Assembly (NCBI GenBank): GCA_046327925.1
Contig: JAXLXM010000001.1
Span: forward strand, 555,316 to 619,315
Direction: 5' to 3'
Source of the DNA: Candidatus Binatia bacterium
Lineage (GTDB): Bacteria > Desulfobacterota > Binatia > HRBIN30
DNA length: 64,000 nt
The position numbers and the translations under genes are program-made. This document shows, piece by piece, positions 45,278 to 64,000 of the stretch; positions within the stretch are counted from its first letter, which is position 1, and every line of letters begins with the position of its first letter. The notes below the pieces were generated by a model, which was not told the origin of the DNA, ran no database searches, and worked only from the letters and a program-made list of their open reading frames with translations.

Positions 45278-45374
45278 GGAGCATCCGAGAGTAGCTCACG
45301 CAGAGAAATCTTCGAAGGGGACTTACTCCGATAGCCGAATATATGCTACCGGAGAGGGGCGGAGGTGCTGGTGG

Positions 45375-46802: not shown

Positions 46803-46985
46803 TCGCCAGCGCTCTGCGTCCTTTTGTCGGTGGGTACCCGCCGGCCGATCGCGCTCGTCCGCAGCCACCCGCAGTTGCCATCTTGGCCGCCATGTGCGTC
46901 CCGGCGGGCGTGCAGATGTCTTCGCGCGCGCGATTCTCGTGCTGGAACTGCGCTCGGTTACCCTTGAAAATAGCGGCCGAAACTG

Positions 46986-47004
46986 ATTTCGAGACAGAAA
47001 CTAG
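46986..47004. repeat. IS right terminal inverted repeat
   Basis: ATTTCGAGACAGAAACTAG, the inverted copy of 44808-44826. Confidence 0.75.
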
Positions 47005-47952
47005 ATAGCGCTTTTGGGCAGGGACGGTTCCGGGCTTCGTTTGGACGATTCGACCTTGCCGATAGAGCTCTTCCATCCGCTCCTTCTTGAAGCGCCAGTA
47101 CCGCGTAACGCCAAGGAACTCATAGTATGGATTCCCTTTTGCCGCTCCTCCCGGGCCTGTTGCATCGCTCAGCCGGTATCGCCTCCCCGTCTTTGGCTCT
47201 ACATGCTTGTAAAAGGCTCCGACATACTCTTCGGAGTACGGCTGGTACTGCATATCCCAGCAGAAAGCGTCACTCTTGGTATACAGGAAGATGACATCGT
47301 GGATTGGGCCCATGTGCATGGAGCCCTGCCCGATGTCGCTGTGTGCCGTCTGCCGCTTCCAGATGATCTGGTTCACAAACTTCTCGGGGCCAAACACTTG
47401 GTCGAGAGCGGCCTTGATGTAGTGCGACACGTCCCATCCCATGTGAACGTAGATGGTCCCGCGCTCCGACAGCAGGTCCCGCATCAACTGAAACCGATCG
47501 AACAGCATCTGAACGAATGACTCGAGACCTCGACCCCACGTGTCGCGATACGCCTTCTCCTCAAGGAGCGAGGCCTCCTTGGTGACTTCTTCCTCCCCTA
47601 TGAACGCTCGAAAGGAGAAGTCTGCGCCGGTTGCAAACGGCGGATCGATGTAGATCAGATCGACCTTCCCCGCGAACTTCTCCAGCAGCGAACCCATCAC
47701 CAGCAGGTTGTCGCCCCAGATGAGCTTGTTGCGCCAGCCAGCTTCGAAGGTGTCGCCCTCCTTGCCTTCGTAGACGTCGAAGAGCGTGCCCTGCACGCCG
47801 CCTTTCTTCGCCTCGCGCGTGGCGCGGCTCTCGTTGACGGTCTCGATGACCTGGAACGGCAGGCTGACGCGCGGCACTTCCTTGAGCGTGCCGTCCTCGT
47901 TGTACTTGCCGGGCCAGACCAGCTCGGTCCTGGTGATGTCGATCTTCGCCAT
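47005..47952 (-). pseudogene. mod: Type III Mod-like (beta-class N6A/N4C) DNA methyltransferase, truncated after codon 316 by the IS
   Basis: N-terminal 316 codons carry catalytic motif IV IYIDPPFATG and the Mod-like region ...PAQKRY. After Y316 the frame runs into the IS end and reads nonsense. Motif I (AdoMet binding), which follows motif IV in beta-class enzymes, is absent. GC is about 56% by hand count over 47101-47340. Confidence 0.75.
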
Positions 47953-49410
47953 CTACTGGTTCTCCTCGATCTTGTTCAGGTAGTCGGCGCCCGCGCGGGT
48001 CAGGCGGTAGCGCTGTTTGCTGCTGCGCGGCTTGTCCGGGATGGTCATCTCGAGCAGGCCGGCGGCGAGCAGCGGATTCAGGATTGCGACCCGGAAATGC
48101 TTCCGGTCCGCGACCTTTGCTGCACGCTGCAGTCGCTCTCGCGGGCTCGGCTCCTGTGCCGCTTCCAGGACGGCGATGACTTGGGACGTACTTGGGGGAT
48201 ACTTGGGGGGCACTTGGGGGGCACTTGGGGCCCACTTGGTCCCTGCTTGGTCCCCACTTGGTCCCGGTCGATTCGCCGCGGCCCGGACCGCGGGGTTCGG
48301 CCGGAAAATCGCGGTCGTGAAACCGTTGGTCTCCCAGACGGGCTCGGGGTAGCCACCCTCCCGCGCCTCGTCCCGGATCCGCTTGATGCCGGTGCCGGCC
48401 TTCTCGATGAAGTCGATCCGATGCAGGAGGTCGGCGATCAGCGCGTTGCGGCGGACGGCCTTGCGGCCAAGATCGGAAAGAGTCATGCCCTTGGGGAGTC
48501 CTCCGGGACTCACCACCTCGATGCGGTCGGTGTAGAGCTCCACGAAGACGTTGGCCCCGTCCATGAACCAGTCCCGGTGCATGACCGCGTTGATGATGGC
48601 CTCGCGCAGGGCCTTCATCGGGTATTCGGGGATGTCCTGCCGCTGCACGGCCTCGATCCGCCAGGCGGCGCGGGTGTTGCGCGCGACAAAGCGCATCGTG
48701 TCCTCGATGTCGGCCACGATGCCGCCGTCGAAGTCCTTGCGGTCGAGGATGTCCGCCTTGCTCGTTCCCTTCGCCAGGAGGCAGGTGATGTATCCCTGAT
48801 TGAAGAAATGGCGGACGTTTTTCGCGAAGAAGAGCACGCCGGCGTTGCGGAAGAGGAGTCTCCCTCCGGCCCGCTCGGCCACCTCGATGTTCACCAGCAC
48901 ATCTTCGGTGCGCGGGCGTCCGGTGATGCCCGAGAGCTCGAGCCAGGCTTTGTACTTCGCGCGGTCGAAGTCCTGCGGGTAGCGGAAGTGCGGGCAGGGC
49001 GAGAGATCGAAGCGGATCGCGCCCTCGGCTCGGAAGAAGTCGCGGATCTCGCCGCGCGAGAGCTTCTGCGTCACCGCGCCCTGACGCCAGAAGAAGCCCT
49101 CGCTGCACTGCACCGGCTTGGCGTCGCTCTCGTGGACCTGGACGACGAGCACCCGGCCCACCGGGCCGACCACGACCTTCACCGGCGGATCGCAGTTGCG
49201 CGCCATATCCTGAATGCGGGCGCGGAGCGCGTTCGTGTCCTTCACGCCGACCACGGCGCCATCGTCCCGCACGCCGAGCAGGATGCGGCCGCCGATCGTA
49301 TTGGCCAGCGCCACCATCTCGCGCGCCAGCGATCCGGAAAGGCTCTCCTTGAACTCCAGGGTCGTGCCTTCGCCTTCCTGGATGAGGATCGCGAGGTCGG
49401 CCGTCTTCAC
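47953..49410 (-). CDS. AlbA_2 (Schlafen-like) / HATPase_c_4 / C-terminal wHTH ATP-binding putative DNA-binding protein
   Basis: The GTG at 49410 overlaps the stop of the upstream helicase (GTGA). Motifs are EGEGTTLEFKESLS (AlbA_2 N-terminus), ...HRDW....NVFVELYTDRIEVVSPGGLPKGMT (HATPase_c_4-like), and a C-terminal ...KQRYRLTRAG wHTH-like tail. The stop TAG abuts the mod ATG. Confidence 0.75.
   Translation of the reverse strand: MKTADLAILIQEGEGTTLEFKESLSGSLAREMVALANTIGGRILLGVRDDGAVVGVKDTNALRARIQDMARNCDPPVKVVVGPVGRVLVVQVHESDAKPVQCSEGFFWRQGAVTQKLSRGEIRDFFRAEGAIRFDLSPCPHFRYPQDFDRAKYKAWLELSGITGRPRTEDVLVNIEVAERAGGRLLFRNAGVLFFAKNVRHFFNQGYITCLLAKGTSKADILDRKDFDGGIVADIEDTMRFVARNTRAAWRIEAVQRQDIPEYPMKALREAIINAVMHRDWFMDGANVFVELYTDRIEVVSPGGLPKGMTLSDLGRKAVRRNALIADLLHRIDFIEKAGTGIKRIRDEAREGGYPEPVWETNGFTTAIFRPNPAVRAAANRPGPSGDQAGTKWAPSAPQVPPKYPPSTSQVIAVLEAAQEPSPRERLQRAAKVADRKHFRVAILNPLLAAGLLEMTIPDKPRSSKQRYRLTRAGADYLNKIEENQ
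48179..48266. repeat. Eight tandem, degenerating 11-bp units (ACTTGGGGGGC-like) inside the AlbA_2-family gene
   Basis: Units read directly: acttgggacgt, acttgggggat, acttggggggc, acttggggggc, acttggggccc, acttggtccct, gcttggtcccc, acttggtcccg. The unit length is not a multiple of 3. Confidence 0.85.
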
Positions 49411-52400
49411 GCGAAAACCCCCTGGCGCGCGATGATCCCTTCCGCGTGGCAGAGCATCCGCAGGTCGCATTCTCCGCAGATCGCCGACTCGGGCGGTGTA
49501 GCGACCGCGAACTCACGCGCCTGGATGCGGCGCACGGTCTCGTCGAAGTGCCGCCCCGCCTCTTCCACCCGCGCCGGGTCGTAGGGCAGGGCCATCAGAG
49601 CATCCGCCTTGCGCGGCTCCGATGTCCAGTAGAGGAGCAGCCGATCCACGCGCCGGCCGTGGCGGCGCTCCAGGATGTGGGCGTAGGTGCAGAGCTGGCG
49701 CTCATAGGCCGCAATCAAGTCGGGGCTGTCCTTCGGCCGCGGCGAGGTCTTGAAGTCGAGCAGCTCGAGCTTGCCGCCTGCCTGCCGCGCCCGGCCGCTC
49801 TCGATCAGGCGACGCAGATATTTTCGGCCATAACCCGTCTTGAGATCCCTTTCGCGCTTGACCGCGTCTTCTCGCGATGGGTGCTCTTCGTAATGAGCGA
49901 TGCGAACGGGTCTGTAACGTGCGGTCCAATCAGCTCCTGAGCCTCGCAAATGCTCAGTCCAACGGCGATGGAGATCGTCTGTATGTCCGATGTAGTGACT
50001 GCCATTGTCGCATTCGATTACATAGACGAAAAAGACGCCCGGCCGCGGCGCAGGCAGGTCGCCGCCGAGCAAGAGGTCCACCTTGCCGGCGAGGATGTAG
50101 CCGTCCTTCTCCAGCGACACGTCCACTTCGGTCTCGATGACGCGGCGCATCTCGTCGCGGTTCTGGCGGAAGTAGTGCACTACCTGCGTGAACGCCGATT
50201 CCTTCGCCGCATCACCGATGGGCCGCACGTCGGAGAGGCAGAGGAAGCGGAACGTGCGCTCGAACAGCTCGCGGATTCGCGCCTCGTCGAGCGTGTCGAG
50301 CTTCCCGTCGAGGGCGATGCGGTGGATCTCCTCGATGGTCTGGTGCACGAGGAGCCCGAAGAAGATCACCGCCGAGCGGGACGGCGTGAAGTCGTACTCG
50401 CGGAAGAACTGGTACTGGCGCGGGCAGGTCTCGTAGATCTTGAGGTCGCCGGTGAAGCTGTAGGTCCGCTTGACCGGCATCCGCTCGCGCACCTCGAAGC
50501 GCTGAGCGGCAAGCAGCTCCTTCTGCACGTAGGGCCACTGCGGCAACCCCTGCCAGATCGGCGCGAAGTGGTCCTTGGGCGGCTCGTGCGCCGAGAGCAC
50601 GAGCAGCTTCTGCGGCCGCGAGAAGGCGACGTAGTGCAGGCGCATGCGGTCGAACAGCGTGATCCGGTTTTCGGGCTCGAAGGGCGGCCGGTGGTAGAAG
50701 TGGCCCAGATCCCGGTCGGTCTGCTTGGGGCTCCCGCGCTGGTTGCTCAGCGAGCCGACGACCACCACCGGGAACTCGAGTCCCTTGGTCTGGTGGATGG
50801 TCATGACCTGCACGTGGCCTTTGGGGAAGGGCTGGTCCGGGTCCTCGTACTCGTTGATGCCGCCGTCGTAGAGCAGGCGCAGGAAGCTGTTGAAGAAGTG
50901 CCACCGAAGGAACTCGCGGTTTCGGTGCGTGACCACCGTGTAGTGGTAGTAGCTCTGGAAGACGTTCAGGAGTTGGGAAAAGATCGCCAGGTTGCGGGCG
51001 GTGTTCTCGTTGTGCACCGCGCTCCGGAACGGGTCCAGCGCGAGCAGGTGGTATAGGTAGTCGGCCGGCCGCAGGTCGAGCGCCTCGCCTTCCTTGAGGC
51101 CCGCGATCTGCGTGACCCATCGCGCGAGCGACGCGGCGAGCGGGTGCGGGGCCCCGAAGCGGCGCCCGAGCTGCACGATCGCGTCGTCCACGTAGGTGGC
51201 CAGCTCCGCGACCGCGCCGGCCACCTGGCCGCGGCCCTCGCCGTGCCAGCCGAAGATGACCGCGAAGCACGCGATGAGGTCACGCACTTCAGGGATCTCG
51301 AAGTAGCCTCGGGCGCGTGGGCAGAACGCCGGGATGCCCCTGACTTCGAGGGCGGCGAGGTAGGGCCCGCTATGGTCCTCGCGAACGCTGTGCAGCAGGA
51401 GCGCCACCTGGCTGTAGTCCGCGATGACGTCGTTCTTCTTCAGGAAGGCGACGAGATCCGCGAAGCGGGCAGCCTCGTCACGTTGATCCTTGCCCCAGAT
51501 CGCGATCACCGACGGGTAGGTGGGATGCATGCCCGCCTCATCCGCCTCGATCGTTTTGTCGTAGCGAAAGGAGGCGCCGGTGCGGTTCGACCAGTCCGCC
51601 GAGGCCATCCAGCGGTCGTAGCGCTCGACGATGGCGCGGTGAGAGCGGTAGTTGGTGGTGAGCTTGAGCGTGTGGCAACCGGGCACGCGCTGCGGGAACT
51701 CGAGGATGTTGCGCACGGTCGCGCCGCGGAACCGGTAGAGGCTCTGATCCTCGTCGCCGACCACGCAGAGGTTGAGGCTCTTCTCCGTGAGCTTGAGGAG
51801 GACCTGCTCCTGGATGTAGTTCGTGTCCTGGTACTCGTCGACCAGGACGTACCGGAGATCGCGAGTCACCGCCTCCGCCGTGGCGGGGTCCTGGAGCAAA
51901 TCGAAGACCAGCCGCTGGAGGTGCGCGAAGTCCGTGCGGTTCGCGTCAAGGAGCGCGCGTTCGTAACGCCGGTAGGCGTCGCCGATGCAGCGGAGGAACA
52001 AATCGGCTGACGCACTGAGAAGCATTGGGTCCAACAGCTCCTCGGTAATCTTGTCGAAGTAGGCTCGCGCACCCTCGATGGCGGTCCAGCGCGTCTTCCA
52101 ACGGTGCAGGAAGAGGTCGTTCTCGGCCGGCCCCACGATTGCGTCGAAGTGCTCGAATATGAAGAGCAGCTGCGTCAGCTCGTCGAGCGTGTCGTAGCTG
52201 TGGCCGAGCTCCGTCCGATGCCGGTGCTGCGTGAGGATGCGATTGCAGAGGCTGTGGATGGTTGACGCCGTCAGCTCGGAGAGATCGCCCGCGTACCCGA
52301 CCTTCCGCGCAGCAGCGGCGAGGCGATCGCGCATCTCGAATGCCGCCTTCTCCGTGAAGGTGCAGAGGACGATCTGCCTCGGGTGCGCTCGCTCCAGCAA

Positions 52401-52553
52401 CAGGAGATTCAGGGCGCGGAGGACGATACTGAAGGTCTTGCCCGAGCCGGGGCCGGCGATGACGAGGAGCGGGCCGTCGAGGTGCCCGATGATTTCGCGC
52501 TGGACATCATTGAGGCGCGGGAAGTGCTCGGCGATTGCCCGCGCGAGCGTCAC
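49407..52553 (-). CDS. UvrD/Rep-family SF1 helicase fused to a Cas4/AddB-type Fe-S PD-(D/E)XK nuclease that carries a nested GIY-YIG domain
   Basis: Helicase motifs are VIAGPGSGKT (Walker A), VLVDEYQDTN, TNYRS and MTIHQTKGLEFPVVVV. The C-terminus has YETCPRQY...GKVDLLL...[GIY-YIG: FFVYVIECDNGSHYIGHTDDLHRRWTEH...REDAVKRERDLK]...ELLDFKTS...YERQLCTYA...CGECDLRMLC. The GTG start at 52553 overlaps the radC stop. Confidence 0.85.
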   Translation of the reverse strand: MTLARAIAEHFPRLNDVQREIIGHLDGPLLVIAGPGSGKTFSIVLRALNLLLLERAHPRQIVLCTFTEKAAFEMRDRLAAAARKVGYAGDLSELTASTIHSLCNRILTQHRHRTELGHSYDTLDELTQLLFIFEHFDAIVGPAENDLFLHRWKTRWTAIEGARAYFDKITEELLDPMLLSASADLFLRCIGDAYRRYERALLDANRTDFAHLQRLVFDLLQDPATAEAVTRDLRYVLVDEYQDTNYIQEQVLLKLTEKSLNLCVVGDEDQSLYRFRGATVRNILEFPQRVPGCHTLKLTTNYRSHRAIVERYDRWMASADWSNRTGASFRYDKTIEADEAGMHPTYPSVIAIWGKDQRDEAARFADLVAFLKKNDVIADYSQVALLLHSVREDHSGPYLAALEVRGIPAFCPRARGYFEIPEVRDLIACFAVIFGWHGEGRGQVAGAVAELATYVDDAIVQLGRRFGAPHPLAASLARWVTQIAGLKEGEALDLRPADYLYHLLALDPFRSAVHNENTARNLAIFSQLLNVFQSYYHYTVVTHRNREFLRWHFFNSFLRLLYDGGINEYEDPDQPFPKGHVQVMTIHQTKGLEFPVVVVGSLSNQRGSPKQTDRDLGHFYHRPPFEPENRITLFDRMRLHYVAFSRPQKLLVLSAHEPPKDHFAPIWQGLPQWPYVQKELLAAQRFEVRERMPVKRTYSFTGDLKIYETCPRQYQFFREYDFTPSRSAVIFFGLLVHQTIEEIHRIALDGKLDTLDEARIRELFERTFRFLCLSDVRPIGDAAKESAFTQVVHYFRQNRDEMRRVIETEVDVSLEKDGYILAGKVDLLLGGDLPAPRPGVFFVYVIECDNGSHYIGHTDDLHRRWTEHLRGSGADWTARYRPVRIAHYEEHPSREDAVKRERDLKTGYGRKYLRRLIESGRARQAGGKLELLDFKTSPRPKDSPDLIAAYERQLCTYAHILERRHGRRVDRLLLYWTSEPRKADALMALPYDPARVEEAGRHFDETVRRIQAREFAVATPPESAICGECDLRMLCHAEGIIARQGVFA

Positions 52554-53278
52554 AGGAGGCCGGCCTTTCGGAAGCTGAATGCGTCCTGCGCCGAGACGAT
52601 GAGGTGGTCCACGACGCGAACGCTGACCGCCTCGGCAGCCAGCACGATGGCACGGGTCAGAACCTTGTCCTGCTCGGTCGGCGCGACCGTTCCGTTCGGA
52701 TGGTTGTGGGCAAGGACAACGCCGAAGGCGCGGCGCCGCAGAGCGGCTTCGATCACGCGCCGCGGGTACACGGCTGCACGATCAATGGTCCCTTCTTCAA
52801 GCGTCTCGATACCGTCGCGCAGCAGCCGGTAGCCGGAATCGAGATAGCCGACCTCGAAGACCTCGTGCTGCAGCGCGCCGATGCGCATCCGCCAGAAGCT
52901 TGCGAGCCGGTCGGGCTCGGCCAGGACATCGCGTCCCTCGCCGCCCTGCTGAAGGTACAGGGTCGCGGCCGCCCGGATGACCCGCAGGGCCACGGGCGTG
53001 ACGCTCCCGATACCCGGCACGGCACGGAGTTCTTCGATGGGCGCATCGAGGATGTCGCGGAGGTTTCCGAAGCGGGCGATGAGATTCTTTGCCGGCCGCT
53101 TCACGTCGGAGCGGGGGATCGCGAGCGTTAAGAGCAGCTCGACCACCTCGTAATCCGCGAAGCCGTCCAGGCCGGACTTCAGGAAGCGGTCGCGGAGGCG
53201 CTGCCGGTGACCGAGGTAGCGGGGATCGTCATCGCTCATGTCCTGGCGCGTCTCGATTCCTGTCGGCGTGCGAATCAA
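52550..53278 (-). CDS. radC: RadC-family (DUF2466, JAB/MPN-like) protein
   Basis: HhH region ELRAVPGIGSVTPVAL and the C-terminal JAB motif VVLAHNHPNG. The start is either 53278 or the ATG at 53239 (MSDDDPRYLGHRQRLRDRF), the latter being closer to typical RadC N-termini. Confidence 0.85.
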   Translation of the reverse strand: MIRTPTGIETRQDMSDDDPRYLGHRQRLRDRFLKSGLDGFADYEVVELLLTLAIPRSDVKRPAKNLIARFGNLRDILDAPIEELRAVPGIGSVTPVALRVIRAAATLYLQQGGEGRDVLAEPDRLASFWRMRIGALQHEVFEVGYLDSGYRLLRDGIETLEEGTIDRAAVYPRRVIEAALRRRAFGVVLAHNHPNGTVAPTEQDKVLTRAIVLAAEAVSVRVVDHLIVSAQDAFSFRKAGLL

Positions 53279-53490: not shown

Positions 53491-54285
53491 TCACGCCGTG
53501 GGGCAACGGACGTGGATGCGAAAGAGATACAGGAATGAAAACACAGCGGCGGCACCGCCCGCCAGACCCCACAAGCCGTTGAGGATCCAGTACAGCAGGG
53601 GCGCAAGGATGGAATCCGTGGCGATGTTGGCGAAGCGCTCGACGATGCCGCCGTACCCGATGAAGAAGCAGACGTTGTAGAACTGCAGGGCGCCGCTGAG
53701 GCCAAAGAGGGCGAATGCCTGCGCGTCTCGGCCGCGCCACAACCGCACCAGCGCCGCGGCAATGGGAATGGCGATCACCCAGAACGAGAGTTCCGCCAGC
53801 ACAAAAAAGGGTGTCAGCCCCCCATAATCCAAATCGGACGAGAAATAGCCCCACCACCAAATGTAATAGGGCAGGCTGGCCTGTGTGTGCGCGACGTTCT
53901 CAAACGCCGACCGGTACACGACCGGAGGCACCTCCCAGATGAGAATCCACAACGACGAAAAACAAAACCAGTGGAGGATATAGCCCCGCCAGCACAGTTC
54001 CCGCGGATACGGCAGGAACAGCGGCGCGAAGATGATGACGGCGAGGACGGGGACGGCCGTCAGCCAGGCGGCGCGGGCGACGAAGATGACATCGAGATCG
54101 AGCGCGCGCGACAGGATCACCCACGCGACGAAGACCAGCGGCAGCGCGCCCAGCAAGGCAACCCCCTGAACGCGCCGTGAATGTCGCAGATGACGCGCCC
54201 CCAGGGTCATATCGAGATCCGTCGTCGCCGCGGAATGTGCCTCCCCGATCGACGACGGCGCTTGACTGATAGAACCGTACTGCAT
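53491..54285 (-). CDS. Multi-pass membrane protein, family not recognised
   Basis: 264-aa ORF with about 7 hydrophobic helices and many Trp/Tyr/Phe residues (YYIWWWGYFSSDLDYGG). GC is somewhat lower than the surroundings. The start is not resolved. Confidence 0.5.
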   Translation of the reverse strand: MQYGSISQAPSSIGEAHSAATTDLDMTLGARHLRHSRRVQGVALLGALPLVFVAWVILSRALDLDVIFVARAAWLTAVPVLAVIIFAPLFLPYPRELCWRGYILHWFCFSSLWILIWEVPPVVYRSAFENVAHTQASLPYYIWWWGYFSSDLDYGGLTPFFVLAELSFWVIAIPIAAALVRLWRGRDAQAFALFGLSGALQFYNVCFFIGYGGIVERFANIATDSILAPLLYWILNGLWGLAGGAAAVFSFLYLFRIHVRCPTA

Positions 54286-54399: not shown

Positions 54400-54708
54400 C
54401 TATTCCTGCAGGAAAGTCTTGTCGTCGCGCACGGACATTTCCGCCCGCCCGAGTTCGTAGGCCACGTACGCAAGGTGGTCGCGATTGATGCCCCAGTTGA
54501 TCAGCATCTTGCGCAGACCGACGGTGTCGCCGCTGAAGGCGATGCGCGGCAGATCATCGACCATCACGGTCACCCGGCCGCACTTTCGATGCGGCAGCGC
54601 CTCGACGACGAAGCAATACCCAGCCTTGTCCTCCTCCCAAGCGTCGTTCGGTCCGATTTCCTCGAAGGTGAGGTCGGGGTACTGCTCCTTCAGCTCCTCA
54701 AGCTTCAT
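54400..54708 (-). CDS. Hypothetical 102-aa protein co-transcribed with the corrinoid-reactivation genes
   Basis: ATG ORF (MKLEELKEQYPDLTFEEIG...) overlapping the stop of the upstream gene by 11 nt. The amino-acid composition is balanced. No family is recognised. Confidence 0.45.
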   Translation of the reverse strand: MKLEELKEQYPDLTFEEIGPNDAWEEDKAGYCFVVEALPHRKCGRVTVMVDDLPRIAFSGDTVGLRKMLINWGINRDHLAYVAYELGRAEMSVRDDKTFLQE

Positions 54709-55438
54709 TGTTGGCGTTCCTTTCTCCCGGCTCGCCCGGGTGGCGTGCGCGGTCCTGGGGGAATTGGCGGACCGAGCAGTGTTCGAGGTCGCAGATGCGG
54801 CACGGCACCACTTCGGCGGCGGCGGATCCGCCGGGGACCAGCCCGATCACATTGAGCAGCGACTTCGCCGGCAGCATCATGAACTGCCCGTTCAATTCGA
54901 CCGGCAGACGGTGGCGGTCGAGATACGAGAAGAGGACGGCGGTGTCCTCCAACCGCCAACCCGTGTAGCCGGGCCCGTAGCGGATCGTCGTGCCGAAGCC
55001 GCGCACGCGGGCGTCGTTGCAGACCCGTTCACGGACGGCGGCCATCACCCGCGTCACCGCGGCCGATGCGCCGGCGTCGAGGGCCAGCGCTTCCACCATG
55101 GCGCCCGCGGCCACCAGACGTTGGATCTCCTCCATCACCGCGGCGCCCACGGTCGCCAGACAGATCCGCACGGCGGTGGCGCGGCGTAGAATCGCGGCGA
55201 GGCGGCGCCCCGATAACATGCGGCCGCCATCGAGGCGGACCGCCTCCACGGTCACGGCCTCGACGCGGACCTCGTGCACGCCCGCCCACGGCCGGACGAA
55301 CTGATCGAGCCGGCCGAGTTGGTCGAGGCAGATCTCGTGGACGGGCGCCGAGACGCGGGTGCGGTCCGGATACCCGAGGGCGCGGAAGAGCGCGTCCGCA
55401 TCGATTGCCAGCCCGCCTCCCTGGATCACCGTTTCCAC
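54698..55438 (-). CDS. Stand-alone methionine-synthase activation-domain-like protein (Met_synt_B12 family)
   Basis: ICLATVGAAVMEEIQRL...EALALDAGASAAV......YGPGYTGWRLEDTAVLFSYLD....PVELNGQFMMLPAKSL fits the pattern I recall for the MetH reactivation domain and its stand-alone homologs in corrinoid methyltransferase loci. Length is 246 aa. Confidence 0.65.
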   Translation of the reverse strand: METVIQGGGLAIDADALFRALGYPDRTRVSAPVHEICLDQLGRLDQFVRPWAGVHEVRVEAVTVEAVRLDGGRMLSGRRLAAILRRATAVRICLATVGAAVMEEIQRLVAAGAMVEALALDAGASAAVTRVMAAVRERVCNDARVRGFGTTIRYGPGYTGWRLEDTAVLFSYLDRHRLPVELNGQFMMLPAKSLLNVIGLVPGGSAAAEVVPCRICDLEHCSVRQFPQDRARHPGEPGERNANNEA

Positions 55439-55456: not shown

Positions 55457-57409
55457 CTATTCGCAGTGCGCGAGCCAGCCGTCCGCGAGGGACGGAAAGT
55501 GGTCGGTCGCATGCGGCAGATGGGTGGCGTCGACGAACGCATCCATGAATCCCGGCTCGGCCGTCAGCTCCACGTATTCGACCTGGCGCGCCATGCGCTC
55601 GGCCTCGGCGCGTTTGTGACGATTCAGGAGGGCGATGCGCGCGCCGTCACCCGCGGCATTGCCGACCGCCCGAACATTCTCGATGCCACAATCCGGGAAC
55701 ATGCCCAGCCAGAGGGCGCGTTCGACATCGATGACGCTGCCGAACGCGCCGGCCAACGTGACTCGATCCGGGCGGGCAATTCCGAAGCGCCGTAGGAGCA
55801 ACTGGCCGCCGGTGTACAGCGCCGCCTTGGCGAGTTGGATGGCACGCACGTCTTCCTGGGTTACCGTGATGTCGATGCCAATGGCCGTCTGTTCCGCCCA
55901 GGCGACGACGAACTCGAACCCGCCGTCGGTGCATGGCCGCACCCGCGGCGACCCGCCGCCGTTGCGGATGCGGCCGCTGCGATCGACGATTCCGGCGTGG
56001 AACATCTCGGCGACGGTTTCGAGGATCGCCGACCCGCACAGGCCGCGCGCCTGCAACGTGCCCGGTTCGACGCGCGTGCTCCAGCGCGGATTGCCGATTA
56101 CCCGGAAGCGGACGTCGCCCGTTGCGGGATCGATCCGAACCTTGTCGATCGCCCCGGGCGTAGCCCGCGTGCCGAACTTGATACACGCGCCTTCGAGCGC
56201 CGGACCGGTCGGGCACGAGGCGGAGAGCAGCCGGTCGCGGTTGCCCAACAGCAGCTCGGCGTTGGTGCCGATGTCGATGATGAGCTGGACCTCGTCGCGC
56301 CGGTGCGGTTCCTCGGCGATGAGCACGGCGACGTTGTCCGCGCCGACGAAAGCGGCCTCGATCGGTAGGAGGTGAACGTTGGCCGAGGGCAGGATCGCCA
56401 AGCCCACATCGCGCGCCTTGACGTCGACAGCGCCGCTGACCGCGGGTGTGAACGGGACGATCCCCAAGGCCTGCACGTCGAGGCCAAGAAAGATGTGGTG
56501 CATGGCGGTGTTGGCGACCAGCACCACCTCGGCGATATCCAGCGGCGCGATCGACGCCTGCGTGGCCGTCTCGCGCGCCAATGCACCGACCGCGTCGACG
56601 ACCAGCCGCCGCATGGCTTCGAGCCGGTCACGACCTTTGCTGCTGGCGATGCGATTCATCACGTCTTCGCCATGCGCGATCTGCGGGTTCATCATGGCGC
56701 TACTGGCTAGCACCTCTCCGCTGGCCACATCGCACAGGTAGGCGGCGACGGTCGTGGTGCCGAGGTCCACCGCGAGGCCGTACGCCCGTTCGCTATAGCC
56801 CGGCTCGATGCGGATCACCTCCTGGCCGTTCCACACGGTGGCCGTGACGGCGCCGTCGCCCGCCCGCAACGCGGCGGGGAGTTGCCGTAACGCGTAGGGG
56901 TCGATGCGCAGATGCGGCAGCGCAAAGTGCGCGTCGAGCGCGGCGCCGAGCCGCTCCCAATCCCCCCGGGGATCCGTCAAACTGGGTGGGGCGGGGCGTA
57001 CGTAGTGCTGGTGCAGGGTGGGGGCAATGTCGATGGACCGCTCGCAGGCCGCTTTCAGGATGATGGGCCGGTCCACCCGGCTTTCCTCCGGGACGTACAC
57101 GACCACGTCGCCCCGCACGCGGGCCTGGCACGACAGCCGCTCCCCGGCGCGCAAGGGACGGCGACCCGTGTAGCGCAGCTCCTCCGGCGTCGGCGGCGAC
57201 ACGTGACTGCCGTGCGAGGCGATGCCCTGCTCGGGGTGCGGCCCCTCCAACACACGCACCTTGCACTTGCCGCACACGGACTGTCCGCCGCAAATGGTTT
57301 CGATGCCGACACCAAGCAAACGCGCGGCCTCGCGCAGCGTCGTTCCCGCGGCGATCTCGCCACACTCGCCGGAAGGCAAGAAGCAGACTCGATGTGTCGT
57401 CATTGCCAA
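55457..57409 (-). CDS. RACo-like reductive activator of corrinoid enzymes (2Fe-2S ferredoxin domain + ASKHA ATPase, DUF4445)
   Basis: The N-terminus has plant-type ferredoxin Cys spacing (ICGGQSVCGKCKV...LSCQA). The long C-terminal ASKHA-like region includes YGLAVDLGTTTV and IDIGTNAE phosphate-binding loops. Length is 650 aa. Confidence 0.85.
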   Translation of the reverse strand: MAMTTHRVCFLPSGECGEIAAGTTLREAARLLGVGIETICGGQSVCGKCKVRVLEGPHPEQGIASHGSHVSPPTPEELRYTGRRPLRAGERLSCQARVRGDVVVYVPEESRVDRPIILKAACERSIDIAPTLHQHYVRPAPPSLTDPRGDWERLGAALDAHFALPHLRIDPYALRQLPAALRAGDGAVTATVWNGQEVIRIEPGYSERAYGLAVDLGTTTVAAYLCDVASGEVLASSAMMNPQIAHGEDVMNRIASSKGRDRLEAMRRLVVDAVGALARETATQASIAPLDIAEVVLVANTAMHHIFLGLDVQALGIVPFTPAVSGAVDVKARDVGLAILPSANVHLLPIEAAFVGADNVAVLIAEEPHRRDEVQLIIDIGTNAELLLGNRDRLLSASCPTGPALEGACIKFGTRATPGAIDKVRIDPATGDVRFRVIGNPRWSTRVEPGTLQARGLCGSAILETVAEMFHAGIVDRSGRIRNGGGSPRVRPCTDGGFEFVVAWAEQTAIGIDITVTQEDVRAIQLAKAALYTGGQLLLRRFGIARPDRVTLAGAFGSVIDVERALWLGMFPDCGIENVRAVGNAAGDGARIALLNRHKRAEAERMARQVEYVELTAEPGFMDAFVDATHLPHATDHFPSLADGWLAHCE

Positions 57410-57785
57410 AGCGCCGCGCTCACAAGCGGTAGGGCGGTCTCATGATTCGATGCGATTAGTCTCGATATATCCGATCGGCATGCACCGCTCAACGGGGCCG
57501 GCCCGCGGGGCTGGCCCGCGGGCGATGGATGCGCGCGGCAGCGAGAGTGGGCGATCGCCGACCGCAACTCCGGATCCGTGCGGCGCTCGGCGGCGACAGG
57601 CGAGCGGACTGGCCCGAGCGCCGCGGCGCTGAGGATCTTGACCAGGGCGGAGTGGATTTGACGCAGAGCGCCGCACGGGGTACCGGTGCTGGGCACTCTG
57701 AGTTCGGGGAGCGCGTGGATGCCTTTCGCGACCAACCGTCGTTTCGAGGACCACCGCCGGTGGCGACGCAGGCGGAGGCACGGCC

Positions 57786-58485: not shown

Positions 58486-59427
58486 ATGAGTATGAACGTG
58501 TCGGTCGCGACGCTGACGGCGACGGGTCCGGTGCTGACCGACGGCGCCTGGGGCACGCAGCTCCAGGCGCACGGATTGCCCCCCGGCGAGGTGGGCGACG
58601 TCTGGAACGTGGTCTATCCCGAACGCGTCGAAGCGGTCGCCCGTGCATACGTCGACGCCGGAAGTCAAATCATTCTCACCAACACCTTTCGGGCCAACCG
58701 GATCGCGCTCGAACGTTCCGCGGAGCGTGACCGGGTGGTCGACATCAATCGCGCCGGGGTGGAAATCTCGCGGCGCGCCGCACAAGGACGGGCACTGGTG
58801 TTCGCGTCCATCGGGCCCAGCGGCAAGCTGCTCATGCGACGCGACATCACCGAGAGCGCATTGGCGGCGGCTTTTGCGGAGCAAGCGCACGCCCTGGCGG
58901 AGGCGGGCGCGGATGCGCTGGTAGTCGAAACCATGAGCGACGTGGTGGAGGCCCGAATTGCGGTCGAAGCGGCGGCGGCCACCGGTCTGCCGGTGGTGGC
59001 CTGCATGGTGTTCGATGCCGGAAAGGCGAAGGACCGGACGATGATGGGCGTGAGCGCGCAGCAGGCGGCGGTCGACCTCACGCGTGCGGGGGCCGCTATC
59101 GTTGGCGCGAACTGCGGGCTCGGTATCGAGCAAGTCGTTCCCATTTGTGCGGCACTGGCGGGCGCCACGGACCGCCCCATCTGGATCAAACCCAACGCCG
59201 GCATTCCCGAGCTGATCGCTGGGGAGATCGTCTATCGGATGACGCCGGAGGCGTTCGCGGGGTACGTACCGCAACTGATTGCGGCGGGGGCGCGTTTCAT
59301 CGGCGGGTGTTGCGGGACGACGCCGGCATTCATCGCGGCACTCCGTTCGCAACTGCGCGCCTGCGCAGGCGGTACGTCCACCGACGGGCGACCGAAGCGG
59401 CGGCTACTCGAAACTGAGCGCCGCTGA
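58486..59427 (+). CDS. Stand-alone homocysteine S-methyltransferase domain protein (Pfam S-methyl_trans type)
   Basis: LTDGAWGTQL, ILTNTF, ETMSD, and the Zn-ligand Cys motifs GANCGLG and GGCCGTTP. It is collinear with the N-terminal module of MetH. Length is 313 aa from the ATG at 58486. Confidence 0.8.
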   Translation: MSMNVSVATLTATGPVLTDGAWGTQLQAHGLPPGEVGDVWNVVYPERVEAVARAYVDAGSQIILTNTFRANRIALERSAERDRVVDINRAGVEISRRAAQGRALVFASIGPSGKLLMRRDITESALAAAFAEQAHALAEAGADALVVETMSDVVEARIAVEAAAATGLPVVACMVFDAGKAKDRTMMGVSAQQAAVDLTRAGAAIVGANCGLGIEQVVPICAALAGATDRPIWIKPNAGIPELIAGEIVYRMTPEAFAGYVPQLIAAGARFIGGCCGTTPAFIAALRSQLRACAGGTSTDGRPKRRLLETERR

Positions 59428-59575: not shown

Positions 59576-60448
59576 TCACCGCCTCATTTTGGCGATGATG
59601 TTGTTGGCGAACTCCTCGATCCGCGCCCGTTTCGCCTCCAGCGTCGAGGTTGGCCCGATGGTGAAGGTGAAGGGATAGCTCACCATCCCGCCCGCTCCGG
59701 CGTCCTCGAGACGCTTGAACGTGTCCACGTCCGGCGGGCTATTGATGGGGACAATGCTGTCGAACGGCTCCGTGCCGCGTCCGGCTTCGGCGCGCAACTG
59801 ATCCAGACGCCGCAAAGTCTCGAGCGCTTGCTCGAGGGATTGCCCGGGGCCCAGCCAACCGTCGCCCAGCCATGCGGCGCGGCGCAGCGCCGCCGGCGTG
59901 ATGCCGCCGATGTAGATCGGAATGGGCTGGCGCGGCGCCGGCAGCATGCGCACCGGAGGGAAGTCGAAGAAGCGGCCGTGGTGCTCGACCAGTTCGCCGC
60001 TCCAGAGCTTGCGCATGACCGCGATGCATTCGTCGAAGCGCTTGCCGCGCGTGTGGAAATCCACGCCGAGGAGATCGTACTCCTCCTTCATCCAACCGGC
60101 GCCGGCGCCGAGGGCGATGCGACCTTCGCAAAAGGAGGCGGCGCTGCCGATCGCCTTGGCCACCTCGATGGGATTGCGCAGCGGCAGGACAAAGACGTTG
60201 GTGGCGAAGCGGATGCGCTTGGTCATCGCGCCGACGGCGGCGAAGAACGACCACGCATCGGGCCACACGGTGAGTGGCGTGAACGGCGGTAGGCCGCTCG
60301 GTGTGTACGGGTAGCGCGGCGCCATGTGCTGAAAGTGAATCAAGTGGTCGGAAATGGTGATGCCGTCGAAGCCGGCGTCTTCCGAGAGCTTGGCGACCGC
60401 AATGAACTGGTCGGCCTCGGTGAACGCGATGGATTGCCAGAAGCGCAT
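59576..60448 (-). CDS. Luciferase-like (LLM class) oxidoreductase, probably F420-dependent
   Basis: MRFWQSIAFTE.DQ....A..SE.AGFDGITISDH and the later GGI.P.ALRRAA.LGDGW pattern are typical of F420-dependent LLM subfamilies. Length is 290 aa. Confidence 0.75.
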   Translation of the reverse strand: MRFWQSIAFTEADQFIAVAKLSEDAGFDGITISDHLIHFQHMAPRYPYTPSGLPPFTPLTVWPDAWSFFAAVGAMTKRIRFATNVFVLPLRNPIEVAKAIGSAASFCEGRIALGAGAGWMKEEYDLLGVDFHTRGKRFDECIAVMRKLWSGELVEHHGRFFDFPPVRMLPAPRQPIPIYIGGITPAALRRAAWLGDGWLGPGQSLEQALETLRRLDQLRAEAGRGTEPFDSIVPINSPPDVDTFKRLEDAGAGGMVSYPFTFTIGPTSTLEAKRARIEEFANNIIAKMRR

Positions 60449-60612: not shown

Positions 60613-61695
60613 TCAGCGCCGCAGCCGGCGTCCGGTTACCAGCGGCAGGTCGAGGGCGGAGAGGATTCCCGGCGCGGCCTGGCACACCGCGGGGATCGCG
60701 TTCACCACGCGCGTGGCGGTGGCGAGAATGCCGCCGGCTACGTGATCGCCGCTGGCATCCCGCTGATCGAAGTGGCAGGTCATCTTCGGATCGCCGTCGA
60801 TCGTGATGTAGTACCCGGGGCCGTCGCGACCCTGCGGCCAGTCGGGGCCGATGTCGGGACGCAGGCGGGTAACGTGCTCGAGCACGATCGTCGGGCGACC
60901 CGCGACGATGCCCTGCACCGCGAAGCGTAACGCGGCCGCCGTACCCTTGCGGATCGGGCCGGCTTGGATCTCGAAGTCATCGGCAGCCGGCAAACGTTCG
61001 TATACCTCGCGAACCGCGTCCAGGGTGACGCCCAGACCCGCGGCGATGGCGTGTACCGGACCGCCCCAGACGTACGTCAGAACACCCGGCTTGAACAGGT
61101 TCGGCACGTAGTCCATCGGCATGCCAAAACCCATGCGCTCGTAGAGGATCTGTTGCGCGACGGCTCTGGACGCCGGGCAATAGGTCGCGTAATCGAGGAT
61201 CTCCATCACGTGGATCGACGTCCAATACTGGCACAGGCCACTGATGACCAGCGGCAGGGTGTCGCTGGCGAAGCCGGGTTCGATGCCGGAGGTGAAGACG
61301 GACTTTCCGCTCGCGCGGCACGCCGCCTCCAGCTTGCGCACCAAGCTCTGGTCGGGGAACGATGGCGGGTACACGAGGCCGACGACGGAGGTAGAGACGA
61401 TATTCTTGCCGGACGCGAGCATACGGCACATCAGGTCGACAGTCTCGGCCTCGCGCTCGTCGCCCGAGGCCGCGGAACAAACGCAATCGGCATCGAGGGC
61501 CAGCAGCGCGTCGATGTCGTTGGTGGCCGCAATCCCGGTGCGTCCGAGCCCGCACAGCTCCCCGGCGTCCCTGCCTACCTTCTCCGGGCTGTGGACCCAC
61601 ACGCCGACCAACTCGAGATCGGGATGCTCGATCACGGCGCGCAGGGCAAAATGGCCGACGAAGCCGGTCGCCCATTGGATCACCTTGTAACGCAT
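60613..61695 (-). CDS. DapB-N-like NAD(P)-binding protein (amine dehydrogenase / 2,4-diaminopentanoate dehydrogenase-like family)
   Basis: MRYKVIQWATGFVGHFALRAVIEHPDLELVGVWVHSPEKVGRDAGEL is the N-terminal signature I associate with this family. Length is 360 aa. Confidence 0.6.
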   Translation of the reverse strand: MRYKVIQWATGFVGHFALRAVIEHPDLELVGVWVHSPEKVGRDAGELCGLGRTGIAATNDIDALLALDADCVCSAASGDEREAETVDLMCRMLASGKNIVSTSVVGLVYPPSFPDQSLVRKLEAACRASGKSVFTSGIEPGFASDTLPLVISGLCQYWTSIHVMEILDYATYCPASRAVAQQILYERMGFGMPMDYVPNLFKPGVLTYVWGGPVHAIAAGLGVTLDAVREVYERLPAADDFEIQAGPIRKGTAAALRFAVQGIVAGRPTIVLEHVTRLRPDIGPDWPQGRDGPGYYITIDGDPKMTCHFDQRDASGDHVAGGILATATRVVNAIPAVCQAAPGILSALDLPLVTGRRLRR

Positions 61696-61732: not shown

Positions 61733-62671
61733 TCACACCAGCGCGTCGATGCGCCGATCCACCGCTCGCAGGAACGTAGGCATCTCGTTGGGGTGATCGA
61801 TGAATTGCGACGGTTTGATGGTGATCGAGTGCACGCCCGCTGCCAACAGGGGGGGCACGCTGGTGTCGATACTGCGGGCGAGGTCGGCGGGCTTGGTGGG
61901 GTGCGTGAATATCGGGAACACGAGGCCGCTCGTTTTCAGAGATGAGACGTCGCGTCCCGCCTTGCCCATCTCCGCGGCCAGAAGGGCGAGACCTTCGGCA
62001 TCGGGCGCGCTGGTCAGGGTGTAACCGCTGCCGTACTTGACGATGCGCTCGATGACCTTCGTGCTCATGCGCTCCCCGCCGATGATGATTTCCGGTCCGC
62101 CGGGCTGCACCGGCTTGGGCATGACGTAGATGTCCTTGAAGCTGTAATATCGCCCCTCGTAGCTGGCCGGCGTCTCCCGCCAAACCAGGCGCATGATCTC
62201 CAGTTGCTCGTCGAGGCGGCGGCTACGCTGCGCGAAGGGGATGCCGAAGGCGGCGTATTCTTCGTGCTGCCAGCCGGCGATTGGTGTAATGGTGACGCGC
62301 CCGCCGGAAAGCAGGTCCAACGTCGCCCACTGCTTCGCGTTCAGTAGCGGCGGGCGCAACGGCACGAGGGTGGCGGTGGCGTGCAGCCGAATGCGCGAGG
62401 TGACCGCGGCGATCGCCGACATCATGACGATCTGACTCGGCATGTGCTGGTCCGGGCGCTGATTGCCGACCCAACGAAAGGCGCGCGGATTGTCCGGCAG
62501 GCCCTTAAAATCGGCGTGCGGCCCCATCACGACGTGGTCGATGATGTGGATGCCATCGTAACCCGCGTCTTCCGCCTGCTGCGCGAAGCGCAAGACGAGC
62601 CGTTCTTCGTCCGGTTTGATGAGCGTGTCGAGTTCGCTCAGGATGACGGTCAGCTTGGGCTTCCGCGGCAT
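61733..62671 (-). CDS. Luciferase-like (LLM class) flavin/F420-dependent oxidoreductase
   Basis: A.QAEDAGYDGIHIIDHV, TIM-barrel-length 312 aa, GGR...I..GW pattern. Confidence 0.75.
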   Translation of the reverse strand: MPRKPKLTVILSELDTLIKPDEERLVLRFAQQAEDAGYDGIHIIDHVVMGPHADFKGLPDNPRAFRWVGNQRPDQHMPSQIVMMSAIAAVTSRIRLHATATLVPLRPPLLNAKQWATLDLLSGGRVTITPIAGWQHEEYAAFGIPFAQRSRRLDEQLEIMRLVWRETPASYEGRYYSFKDIYVMPKPVQPGGPEIIIGGERMSTKVIERIVKYGSGYTLTSAPDAEGLALLAAEMGKAGRDVSSLKTSGLVFPIFTHPTKPADLARSIDTSVPPLLAAGVHSITIKPSQFIDHPNEMPTFLRAVDRRIDALV

Positions 62672-62722: not shown

Positions 62723-63982
62723 CTAGTGCAGCGGCATCCCCAGCCGCGCCAACTCGTCCATGACGCGCAACATGCCGGCTTCGTACGCCGGCTTGGGCCG
62801 CACGGTTTCAAGGTCGTAGGCGTCAGGGAACGCAACCTGCTTCTCGACGGTCGGCAGCAGTTCGTCCACCTTGCGCATGATCTTCTGCGCCAGTTCGTTG
62901 GACTTCTCGGGGGACAGGCCGGTGCACGCCTTCATCATCTGATCGATCAAGCGGGCTTCCAGTCCCGTGTGCCCGGAGATCCAGGAGTAAGACATGCCGC
63001 TGGCGACGTACACCGCCACCACCGCCGCCGACTGCCACAACGACACCGGCGTGCGCCACACCCGGTCGATGCCGGAGATGGACGAGCCCACCGCCAGGCC
63101 CAGGTGCCGCTCCGAGGCGCGCGCCGCGCCGCTGAAGGCCCAGTGCGAGTCGCGCGTGGCCCAGGTGCCGTCGAGATGGCTGGGGAAGTAGCTCATGGTG
63201 CCGCCGTGCGCATAGCTCATTTGCCCGAGCCCGTTGGCCACCATGGTCACGGCCACCTCGGCGCCATCGCGGCAGAGGCCGCCGATGCACGACATCGAAC
63301 TCTGCCACGGCTCGATGCCCTTGATCTCGCAGTACTGGGCCAGGAGCAGCGGATTCCAGCTCAGTTTCTGTTCGGGCATGATGTGGATGCCGATCTGCGT
63401 GTTGTAGGCATCGCGGTAACCGCCCTCCATGACGGCCATGGTGCCGCTCGGCGTACTGGCCGTGCCCAGCAGCCCAAGATTCAAGTGCAGGCGTCCCGCG
63501 CGCTTGAGCGCCTCGCGCAAGGCTTCCTGTTCCCACAGGGCGACGTAGACTTCGGTCAACGTCCCCGCTTTCGGATCGATGGTATCGAGCCGGGCCAAGC
63601 CGGGGCAAATGCCGAGCCCGGCGACCGACGGCTCCTGCGCGATGGACTGCACGTAGGGAATGAACCATTCCTGCGCCGCCACGCCGGCGGGGCCGGCATA
63701 GTTGGTCGGTGCCCATGGATCGGTGCCCTTGCGGTGGCGCAAGGTCATTTTATCTGGGGCCTTACCGAGCGTGACGCAGGCCGGGTTCTCGCGCGATTCC
63801 TTGGCGATCTGTTGGAGCTCCTCCTTCGTGTACTTGACGACGCGACCGGTGTTCATCTGGTACAGTCCGATCTCGGCAAGCAGGTCGACCGCGGCGTGGA
63901 ATATGGCATCGGCCGTCCGCTCGCTGACGACCAGATTGTCCGGGTCGTACTTGATATCGTACTCCGCGACCAGCTCGCGCAC
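62723..63982 (-). CDS. Non-pyrrolysine homolog of monomethylamine methyltransferase MtmB (possibly 5'-incomplete at the window edge)
   Basis: Collinear by eye with my recollection of Methanosarcina MtmB:
- GLYQMNTGRVVKYTKEEL versus GIYCTDTHRIVKYTEDEI.
- AGPAGVAAQEWFIPYV versus GGPTGSPISEDVFMPVH.
- HLDGTW versus HLDGPV.
- HTGLEARLIDQM...AFPDAYDLETVRPKPAY...LARLGMPL versus TTGMEARMMGEV...TFQECYDVKTVTPTEEY...LEDLGLVF.
There is no in-frame stop. The frame is still open from 63983 to 64000, so the true start may lie outside the window. Confidence 0.8.
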   Translation of the reverse strand: MRELVAEYDIKYDPDNLVVSERTADAIFHAAVDLLAEIGLYQMNTGRVVKYTKEELQQIAKESRENPACVTLGKAPDKMTLRHRKGTDPWAPTNYAGPAGVAAQEWFIPYVQSIAQEPSVAGLGICPGLARLDTIDPKAGTLTEVYVALWEQEALREALKRAGRLHLNLGLLGTASTPSGTMAVMEGGYRDAYNTQIGIHIMPEQKLSWNPLLLAQYCEIKGIEPWQSSMSCIGGLCRDGAEVAVTMVANGLGQMSYAHGGTMSYFPSHLDGTWATRDSHWAFSGAARASERHLGLAVGSSISGIDRVWRTPVSLWQSAAVVAVYVASGMSYSWISGHTGLEARLIDQMMKACTGLSPEKSNELAQKIMRKVDELLPTVEKQVAFPDAYDLETVRPKPAYEAGMLRVMDELARLGMPLH

Positions 63983-64000
63983 CTTGAAGGCGAGCTCCAG

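Follow-up and report, generated by a model that had tools for sequence, protein, structure and literature searches.

A probable EmtA-type methyltransferase subunit in Candidatus Binatia, encoded in a rearranged variant of the emt gene cluster

What does a homolog of the monomethylamine methyltransferase MtmB do in a bacterium of high G+C content, when it lacks the pyrrolysine that prior studies have held necessary for monomethylamine methyl transfer in MtmB (PMC13044021)? The question is raised by an open reading frame (ORF) at the right-hand end of a 64,000-nucleotide stretch of a Candidatus Binatia genome (assembly GCA_046327925.1, contig JAXLXM010000001.1, positions 555,316 to 619,315), the whole of which is referred to here as the window. 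A preliminary description of this DNA had recognised the ORF as a non-pyrrolysine MtmB homolog and considered that relatives of this kind had no assigned substrate. In fact substrates have been assigned to EmtA (estrogens), AbeA (androgens) and MtqB (tetramethylammonium and choline), and of these the EmtA branch, to which the ORF is closest, has been characterised best. We suggest, with a probability of about 0.72, that the ORF encodes the EmtA-type catalytic, substrate-binding subunit of a cobalamin-dependent methyltransferase, the system by which anaerobic estrogen degraders convert estrogens to androgens. The argument begins with the gene itself and one of its codons.

62723..64000, minus strand: emtA-like gene, the C-terminal 425 codons and stop codon of a non-pyrrolysine MtmB-family methyltransferase of about 448 amino acids (PF05369; 74% identity to EmtA of Denitratisoma sp. 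DHT3)
63473..63475, minus strand: GGG codon for Gly176 (window numbering), aligned to pyrrolysine 202 of Methanosarcina barkeri MtmB (HMMER alignment to 1L2Q)

Translation from position 64000 to 62726 on the minus strand gives 425 uninterrupted sense codons followed by a stop codon at 62723-62725; there are no internal stops and hence no UAG, as had been reported in the preliminary description. The frame remains open up to position 64000, where the window ends, and therefore the listed product of 419 amino acids with a GTG start at 63982 merely reflects the first start codon to occur within the window. Since full-length homologs have 447-449 amino acids and the alignment begins at their residue 24, about 23 N-terminal codons are predicted to lie past 64000. 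The G+C content of third and second codon positions (GC3 0.88, GC2 0.46), in a window of 65.9% G+C, is the codon-position signature of a real gene.

Membership of the MtmB family was examined at the level of both sequence and structure. The Pfam model PF05369 (MtmB) matches the window protein with 121 bits (E = 7.7e-35), well above its curated gathering score of 25, and the sole matches of a phmmer search against the PDB were to MtmB (1L2Q and 1TV2, E = 6e-13), with residues 3-407 of the window protein collinear with residues 32-441 of the M. barkeri enzyme. No NCBIfam model covers the protein. An AlphaFold2 model built with 55 homologs reached a mean predicted local distance difference test score (pLDDT) of 96.1 and a predicted template modelling score of 0.94. 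Foldseek placed the MtmB entries 1L2Q, 1TV2 and 1NTH as its top three matches to this model, with a template modelling (TM) score of 0.89, a root-mean-square deviation of 2.9 A and 18% identity, while the MttB and MtgB barrels trail at a TM score of about 0.6. The window protein is a genuine MtmB-family member with an MtmB-type TIM-barrel fold, so that the homology and collinearity first proposed for it are upheld, and the Pfam search that had been recommended as a check is significant. The superfamily as a whole is small. Among 1.84 billion representatives of clusters at 50%, matching clusters number 425 at E <= 0.001, 206 at E <= 1e-10 and 31 at E <= 1e-30, and the EmtA/AbeA-like portion consists of a handful of clusters.

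The motif AGRLHLNLGLLGTAS occupies residues 168-182 of the window protein and contains the site that corresponds to pyrrolysine. HMMER aligns AGRLHLNL-G-LLGTAS of the window protein with the MtmB segment AGRPGMGV-X-GPETS, which sets pyrrolysine 202 (X) opposite Gly176. An ordinary residue had been anticipated here, either Gly or Leu; the former is correct and the latter is not. Gly176 is invariant in 117/117 aligned homologs, as are Arg170, Leu177 and Thr180, and Leu178 is nearly so. The UAG-encoded pyrrolysine of MtmB in the strict sense is replaced by a glycine codon, and because this site lies well inside the ORF, the ORF is not the post-UAG portion of a pyrrolysine gene, which dispels a worry expressed in the preliminary description. 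More broadly, the ORF might be a fragment or pseudogene, consisting either of such a post-UAG part or of a truncated copy left by rearrangement of the locus. It does run off the window, and a remnant of a TetR gene and transposase genes mark the region as rearranged. It is nevertheless scarcely conceivable that the ORF is of this kind, given a pyrrolysine-equivalent codon that is internal and reads GGG, 425 open codons with a GC3 of 0.88, relatives of 80-95% identity that are full length (447-448 amino acids) and align without gaps from residue 24, and a window edge that is not the end of the contig, which is about 966 kb long.

The functional assignment depends in part on the similarity to EmtA. 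Aligned pairwise, the window protein and the EmtA of Denitratisoma sp. DHT3 (P0022, B9N43_10325; relatives are given here as P numbers for proteins and L numbers for loci) are identical at 312/423 residues, or 74%, without a gap, and the identity to P0048 of Denitratisoma oestradiolicum, presumably the EmtA of that species, is 69%, again gapless; both have Gly at the pyrrolysine position. A search of 5.8 billion proteins led to a compact family in which these two are the members from cultured organisms. P0001 is 95% identical to the window protein, and relatives at 70-95% identity were found in a scan of GTDB genomes.

B9N43_10325 has been identified as emtA (Wang et al., bioRxiv 10.1101/714501); its product, which resembles MtmB, is the catalytic subunit of EmtABCD, a cobalamin-dependent estradiol methyltransferase. 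Disruption of emtA in DHT3 abolished anaerobic growth on estradiol while growth on testosterone was kept, and extracts of the strain converted estradiol to androgens in a cobalamin-dependent and propyl-iodide-sensitive reaction (bioRxiv 10.1101/714501). EmtA has been assigned to the cobalamin-mediated C-10 methylation of estrogens (bioRxiv 10.1101/714501; PMC7448270). S-adenosylmethionine (SAM, or AdoMet) is the stoichiometric methyl donor of the reaction, which requires a low-potential reductant, and it is stated explicitly that EmtA has no pyrrolysine codon (Jacoby et al. 2020, PMC7448270). A paper on the mlp gene cluster (PMC10418091, current version) was considered as an explanation of the locus and set aside, as it mentions neither MtmB homologs nor luciferase-like genes.

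Public records (P0001, P0006, P0018, P0040, P0045, P0048 and others) name proteins of this clade 'monomethylamine:corrinoid methyltransferase'; none of them contains pyrrolysine, and their identity to EmtA-type proteins is 65-95%. These automatic names imply a methylamine or quaternary-amine:corrinoid methyltransferase, resembling MtmB or MtqB and serving methylotrophy. Such a function would agree with the MtmB Pfam family and fold, with the existence of MtqB, a non-pyrrolysine MtmB homolog that demethylates tetramethylammonium and choline (PMC13044021), and with the prediction that Binatia, a class placed in Desulfobacterota_B by GTDB, are methylotrophs. We regard it as very improbable, however, because the pyrrolysine is replaced by an invariant Gly, the identity is 18% to MtmB but 74% to EmtA, the entire set of accessory genes is that of an emt locus, and the cluster has no MT2-type methyltransferase for tetrahydrofolate or coenzyme M. 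MtmB of M. barkeri (1L2Q) shares PF05369, the TIM barrel and collinearity over about 410 residues with the window protein, but it has other partner genes and transfers methyl groups from amine to cobalt, whereas transfer from cobalt to carbon is proposed for the window protein. MtqB, compared here by its published description only, likewise belongs to the superfamily, lacks pyrrolysine and has a substrate assigned by experiment; it differs in being a methanogen enzyme that demethylates quaternary amines and in standing near the pyrrolysine-containing MtmBs in the published tree (PMC13044021). Its clade has been described as having conserved Met/Cys and aromatic residues in the pocket (PMC13044021). 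Metagenome-assembled genome (MAG) surveys that count mtmB towards methylamine use (e.g. PMC11264602) may over-call methylotrophy, and for the EmtA-like clade the inference from an mtmB annotation to methylamine use is probably wrong.

The genes that accompany the emtA-like gene in the window, in order of increasing distance from it, are as follows.

61733..62671, minus strand: luciferase-like (F420-type LLM class) oxidoreductase, 312 amino acids (PF00296, E = 1e-40; TIGR03619, 176.7 bits against a cut-off of 166.9)
60613..61695, minus strand: NAD(P)-binding DapB_N/DAP_DH_C protein, 2,4-diaminopentanoate-dehydrogenase-like (DAPDH-like), 360 amino acids (Pfam)
59576..60448, minus strand: emtD ortholog, luciferase-like oxidoreductase, 290 amino acids (58% identity to DHT3 EmtD over the full length)
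58486..59427, plus strand: stand-alone homocysteine S-methyltransferase domain protein, 313 amino acids (PF02574, E = 9e-65)
57553..57762, minus strand: remnant of a TetR-family regulator, middle part only, without the helix-turn-helix (tblastn with TetR of L017, L013, DHT3 and L011)
55457..57409, minus strand: RACo-type ATP-dependent reductive activator of corrinoid proteins (2Fe-2S ferredoxin and ASKHA domains), 650 amino acids (Pfam Fer2, RACo_linker, Raco_middle, RACo_C_ter)
54698..55438, minus strand: stand-alone homolog of the MetH activation (AdoMet-binding) domain, 246 amino acids, ortholog of DHT3 B9N43_10285 (44% identity to L008:3237-3950)
54400..54708, minus strand: emtC ortholog, 102 amino acids (70% identity to DHT3 EmtC over the full length)
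53491..54285, minus strand: predicted multi-pass membrane protein of 264 amino acids directly downstream of emtC (three strongly hydrophobic stretches)

The genes from emtA to emtD are encoded on the minus strand. That for the homocysteine methyltransferase is on the plus strand, convergent with emtD, and those beyond it are again on the minus strand. In the DHT3 locus one strand carries an activation-like gene of 237 amino acids, RACo, and then PfkB and TetR, and the other carries emtD (luciferase-like), emtC (102 amino acids), emtB (corrinoid protein), emtA, serine hydroxymethyltransferase (SHMT) and MetH. Orthologs of emtC, emtD, the RACo-like gene, the activation-domain gene and a second luciferase-like gene are therefore near emtA in the window as they are in DHT3. 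The emtD product of the window is 64-70% identical to those of L013 and L017 and its emtC product 65-72% identical to those of L013, L016 and L017; NCBIfam has no EmtC model. The RACo protein, which bears out the earlier remark that a corrinoid-reactivation gene lies nearby (55457-57409), shares 58% identity with the RamA-like protein that estradiol induces in DHT3; both the RACo-like and the 'activating' genes have been reported as estradiol-induced (bioRxiv 10.1101/714501; PMC7448270).

The remaining neighbours are conserved to different degrees. The 312-amino-acid luciferase-like gene is an accessory gene kept beside emtA-like genes: copies of 87-90% identity follow emtA in L007 and L010, and a DHT3 copy of 69% identity is situated 8 kb downstream of emtA (L008:19184-20107). 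The DAPDH-like protein scores 122.7 bits against NF040740, far under the cut-off of 400. Orthologs of 89-91% identity occupy the same position in L007 and L010, and in DHT3 there is no copy within 10 kb of emtA. The homocysteine S-methyltransferase protein has the zinc motif Cys210 and GGCC at 273-276 (Cys / Gly-Gly-Cys-Cys) and is of the same length, 313 amino acids, in L001. Its best NCBIfam matches, all below their cut-offs, are the HMT/MTHFR models (the HMT halves of YitJ-type enzymes) and the BHMT models. As the gene is absent from L010, the locus with the 95%-identical EmtA, it is not a core part of the locus. The TetR remnant retains 35-51% identity over about 70 amino acids only in tblastn, and the ORF around it has no Pfam match; intact TetR genes flank emtD in canonical clusters, and a remnant without the helix-turn-helix points to a rearrangement of the locus. 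The 264-amino-acid membrane protein matches no Pfam or NCBIfam model and is without a counterpart in the other loci compared, and its place in the Emt system is uncertain. Cobalamin or SAM riboswitches, other RNAs and tRNAs were not found within the 64-kb window.

Comparison with relatives helps to clarify what may lie past the window edge. In L011, where EmtA is 95% identical to the window protein, a corrinoid protein with the DxHxxG motif and 78% identity to DHT3 EmtB is encoded directly upstream of emtA. L013, a "Deltaproteobacteria" MAG with an EmtA of 83% identity, and L017, a Candidatus Binatia MAG with one of 86%, both belong to the subclade of the window protein and have the canonical arrangement of TetR beside emtD-emtC-emtB-emtA. 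Since emtB is immediately upstream of emtA in L011, L013 and L017, an emtB gene is expected just past base 64000, and the emtA of the window is probably not the head of its operon. The preliminary description had put it at the head of a minus-strand string with two luciferase-like genes and one amine-dehydrogenase-like gene; these neighbours are present, but the head position does not agree with the arrangement in relatives. With its closest relatives, L010 and L007, the window shares the string emtA, luciferase-like gene, (second emtA-like gene), DAPDH-like gene and emtD, and for this reason its locus is regarded as a lineage-specific rearranged and expanded variant of the Emt system. The gene is a member of the known EmtA system in a new host lineage with a rearranged, expanded neighbourhood, and not an orphan enzyme.

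Some taxonomic points in this comparison call for comment. The MetH of the window points to Candidatus Binatia as the host: its named relatives, at 69-79% identity, nearly all come from that group. The placement of Binatia in Desulfobacterota_B may explain the label "Deltaproteobacteria bacterium" on some of these MAGs. L016 (CAZGUU010000045.1) is titled 'uncultured Enterobacteriaceae bacterium', a label that looks wrong: the G+C content is 70.6%, and the locus includes emtC-emtB-emtA, the encoded EmtA sharing 81% identity with that of the window.

The 246-amino-acid protein beside RACo deserves particular attention. It has no Pfam match at normal thresholds and no NCBIfam model, and of 5.8 billion proteins just 33 belong to its family. 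PDB matches to repeat proteins, returned by phmmer with the single sequence, were rejected as spurious, and a family profile was needed. This profile matches 1J6R, the stand-alone MetH activation domain of Thermotoga maritima, over the whole length (E = 7.8e-10). The AlphaFold2 model of the protein has a pLDDT of 83, and all of its top Foldseek matches (19/19) are MetH activation domains, with a target TM score of 0.83 for 1J6R. Within the family Y154, P156, G157 and Y158 are invariant and R153 nearly so, and the segment R153-Y154-G-P156-G157-Y158 aligns with 'RisPGY' of 1J6R. We take this segment to be the AdoMet-binding RxxxGY motif of MetH. The gene is kept beside RACo in the Denitratisoma emt locus, and its product is a candidate for the component that loads methyl groups from SAM onto cobalt. 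Proteins of this type may have that role, SAM:cob(I)alamin methyl loading, in all Emt systems. The published scheme gives both methyl transfers to EmtAB (PMC7448270), and a stand-alone AdoMet-binding domain beside RACo thus provides a testable candidate for a step that published models leave to EmtAB.

A reaction sequence for the window system can be proposed on this basis. The RACo-type activator would keep the corrinoid of EmtB at Co(I), or return it to that state by reducing Co(II) with ATP. Co(I)-EmtB would then be methylated from SAM, which the 246-amino-acid activation-domain protein could serve to position. EmtA, an MtmB-fold TIM barrel with Gly in place of pyrrolysine, would bind the phenolic steroid and methylate C-10 of its ring A at the expense of methyl-Co(III), so that an androgen with a 1,4-dien-3-one structure results. 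MetH and SHMT of the Denitratisoma locus serve the regeneration of methionine and SAM (PMC7448270), and the homocysteine methyltransferase of the window may help in a similar way, although an MT2-like role is also possible. From the 74% identity and the shared accessory genes we infer that this Binatia protein uses estrogens and acts in the methylating direction, and the direction from estrogen to androgen is favoured because the SAM module is conserved and an AbeC-like MT2 is absent.

The other direction is represented by AbeA, which is responsible for the C-19 demethylation of androgens, the reverse of the EmtA reaction, and is about 40% identical to EmtA (PMC11912376). AbeABC of Phosphitispora sp. 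TUW77 (PMC11912376) resembles the window system in that AbeA belongs to the EmtA/AbeA lineage of non-pyrrolysine MtmB homologs and acts, by way of a corrinoid protein, on ring A of steroids, and several paralogous copies of AbeA occur. The two systems differ in identity to EmtA (about 40% for AbeA, a published figure from a protein compared here by description, against 74% for the window protein) and in that AbeABC has its own MT2 (AbeC), which feeds tetrahydrofolate and the Wood-Ljungdahl pathway; no AbeC-like MT2 or pterin-binding gene is present between 53.4 and 64 kb of the window.

The emtA-like genes have been duplicated in the closest relatives of the window. L010 (95% identical) has two in tandem (L010:107-3872) and L007 (92%) has three (L007:423-5659), these tandem genes being 75-92% identical to the window protein and interleaved with a luciferase-like gene; a single emtA-like copy is found in the visible part of the window. 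In a neighbour-joining tree of 117 sequences, made by a distance method without bootstrap and with AbeA, MtqB and pyrrolysine-containing MtmB sequences left out, the window protein falls within a tight clade, P0001-P0015, whose sister clade is made up of the tandem paralogs (P0016-19, 28, 30, 41); the two are jointly sister to a clade holding the Denitratisoma EmtAs (P0022, P0048). Chloroflexi-type sequences of about 50% identity are clearly separate from all three. On this topology the duplication is younger than the split from the Denitratisoma lineage, and in relatives it is the window-type copy that adjoins emtB. Mean identity to Denitratisoma is alike for the window clade (69%) and the tandem-paralog clade (66%), and it is therefore not settled which paralog is functionally equivalent to EmtA. 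With Denitratisoma EmtA as reference, no specificity-determining positions between the two clades met the criteria.

A separate observation was made on the same gene in Logan assemblies. Five of these (L001, L003, L004, L005, L006), from separate sequencing runs, end at one shared point in emtA, 178 codons before the stop codon and equivalent to window position ~63260. A common break point suggests that these genomes hold a further copy of the 5' two-thirds of emtA, in a paralog or a strain variant. Exact matches to the 312-amino-acid luciferase-like protein were confined to short Logan contigs, most of which end within emtA, and a 60-mer from the window end had no exact match among JGI metagenome contigs.

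Several points weigh against the EmtA-type assignment. No gene for an EmtB-type corrinoid protein is present in the window, where a six-frame scan for DxHxxG found only MetH (9862-13380), a gene some 50 kb from emtA that holds the only Pterin_bind domain of the window. The gene order departs from the canonical emtDCBA in that emtD is downstream of emtA, emtC is behind RACo and TetR is a remnant. Because close relatives have two or three tandem emtA-like paralogs, duplicated after the split from Denitratisoma, a strict one-to-one orthology with EmtA cannot be assumed. Genes for androgen (2,3-seco) catabolism or for denitrification were not recognised in the 64-kb window, and the host belongs to an uncultured Binatia lineage without reported steroid metabolism. 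The EmtA-like activity, substrate and direction are likewise proposed by comparison. Relative to EmtABCD as described, the window system differs further in its host, which is not a denitrifying pseudomonad-phylum bacterium (Pseudomonadota) but Candidatus Binatia, in the position of SHMT and MetH, which are not adjacent to emtA, and in the addition of the DAPDH-like and stand-alone homocysteine methyltransferase genes. What it has in common with that system, besides the sequence identity, the Gly at the pyrrolysine position and the accessory orthologs, is the emtB found directly upstream of emtA in its close relatives.

It could be argued from the same observations that the chemistry is retained but that the substrate or the direction is another one. 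The protein might act on a different phenolic compound, whether a steroid or not, or it might demethylate androgens at C-19 in the manner of AbeA and pass the methyl group to homocysteine by way of the neighbouring methyltransferase. The tandem paralogs in close relatives suggest a diversification of specificity, the conserved 312-amino-acid luciferase-like and DAPDH-like genes lie outside emtABCD, and a homocysteine methyltransferase domain protein with a zinc motif adjoins emtD. EmtAB is reversible in vitro (PMC7448270), AbeA homologs demethylate androgens in vivo, and the host is a soil or sediment member of the Binatia rather than a known estrogen degrader. Against this, the gapless identity of 74% to EmtA far exceeds the approximately 40% between AbeA and EmtA, the AdoMet-binding activation-domain protein and RACo are conserved as in the SAM-driven Denitratisoma system, no AbeC-type pterin-binding MT2 is found in the cluster, and the homocysteine methyltransferase gene is missing from L010. 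A different substrate or direction is consequently unlikely, though a good deal less so than a role in methylamine use. It is a little more doubtful still that the Emt machinery, rearranged and expanded in Binatia, serves a non-estrogen purpose altogether, such as the C-methylation or demethylation of other soil phenolics, or androgen demethylation with homocysteine as acceptor. If the last of these were true, estrogens would be formed without oxygen, and their formation would be coupled to the synthesis of methionine.

With estrogen methylation as the preferred function, the occurrence of the emt gene set in Candidatus Binatia is of wider interest. Most uncultured carriers of EmtA and AbeA were found to be denitrifying Pseudomonadota in the 2025 AbeA paper (PMC11912376), and a literature search combining Binatia, estrogen and methyltransferase found no paper linking them. 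The presence of these genes in a widespread uncultured lineage of soils and sediments extends the set beyond denitrifying Pseudomonadota and would add to the candidate anaerobic estrogen degraders.

Some other features of the window were noted. A mobile or defence-like island (45120-53278) borders the emt genes and includes the following.

45120-46802: insertion-sequence-type DDE transposase
47953-49512: Schlafen/AlbA_2 - HATPase_c_4 - Fic-like_C protein
49407-52553: UvrD helicase of 1048 amino acids fused to PD-(D/E)XK, GIY-YIG and Cas4-like nuclease domains
52550-53278: RadC

Further from the emt genes, a protein of 880 amino acids encoded at 42161-44803 on the minus strand contains a tandem pair of family III CoA-transferase domains. 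A fragment of a Mutator-family transposase is located at 26915-27601 on the plus strand, its 228 amino acids corresponding to the first third only of a 379-position profile.

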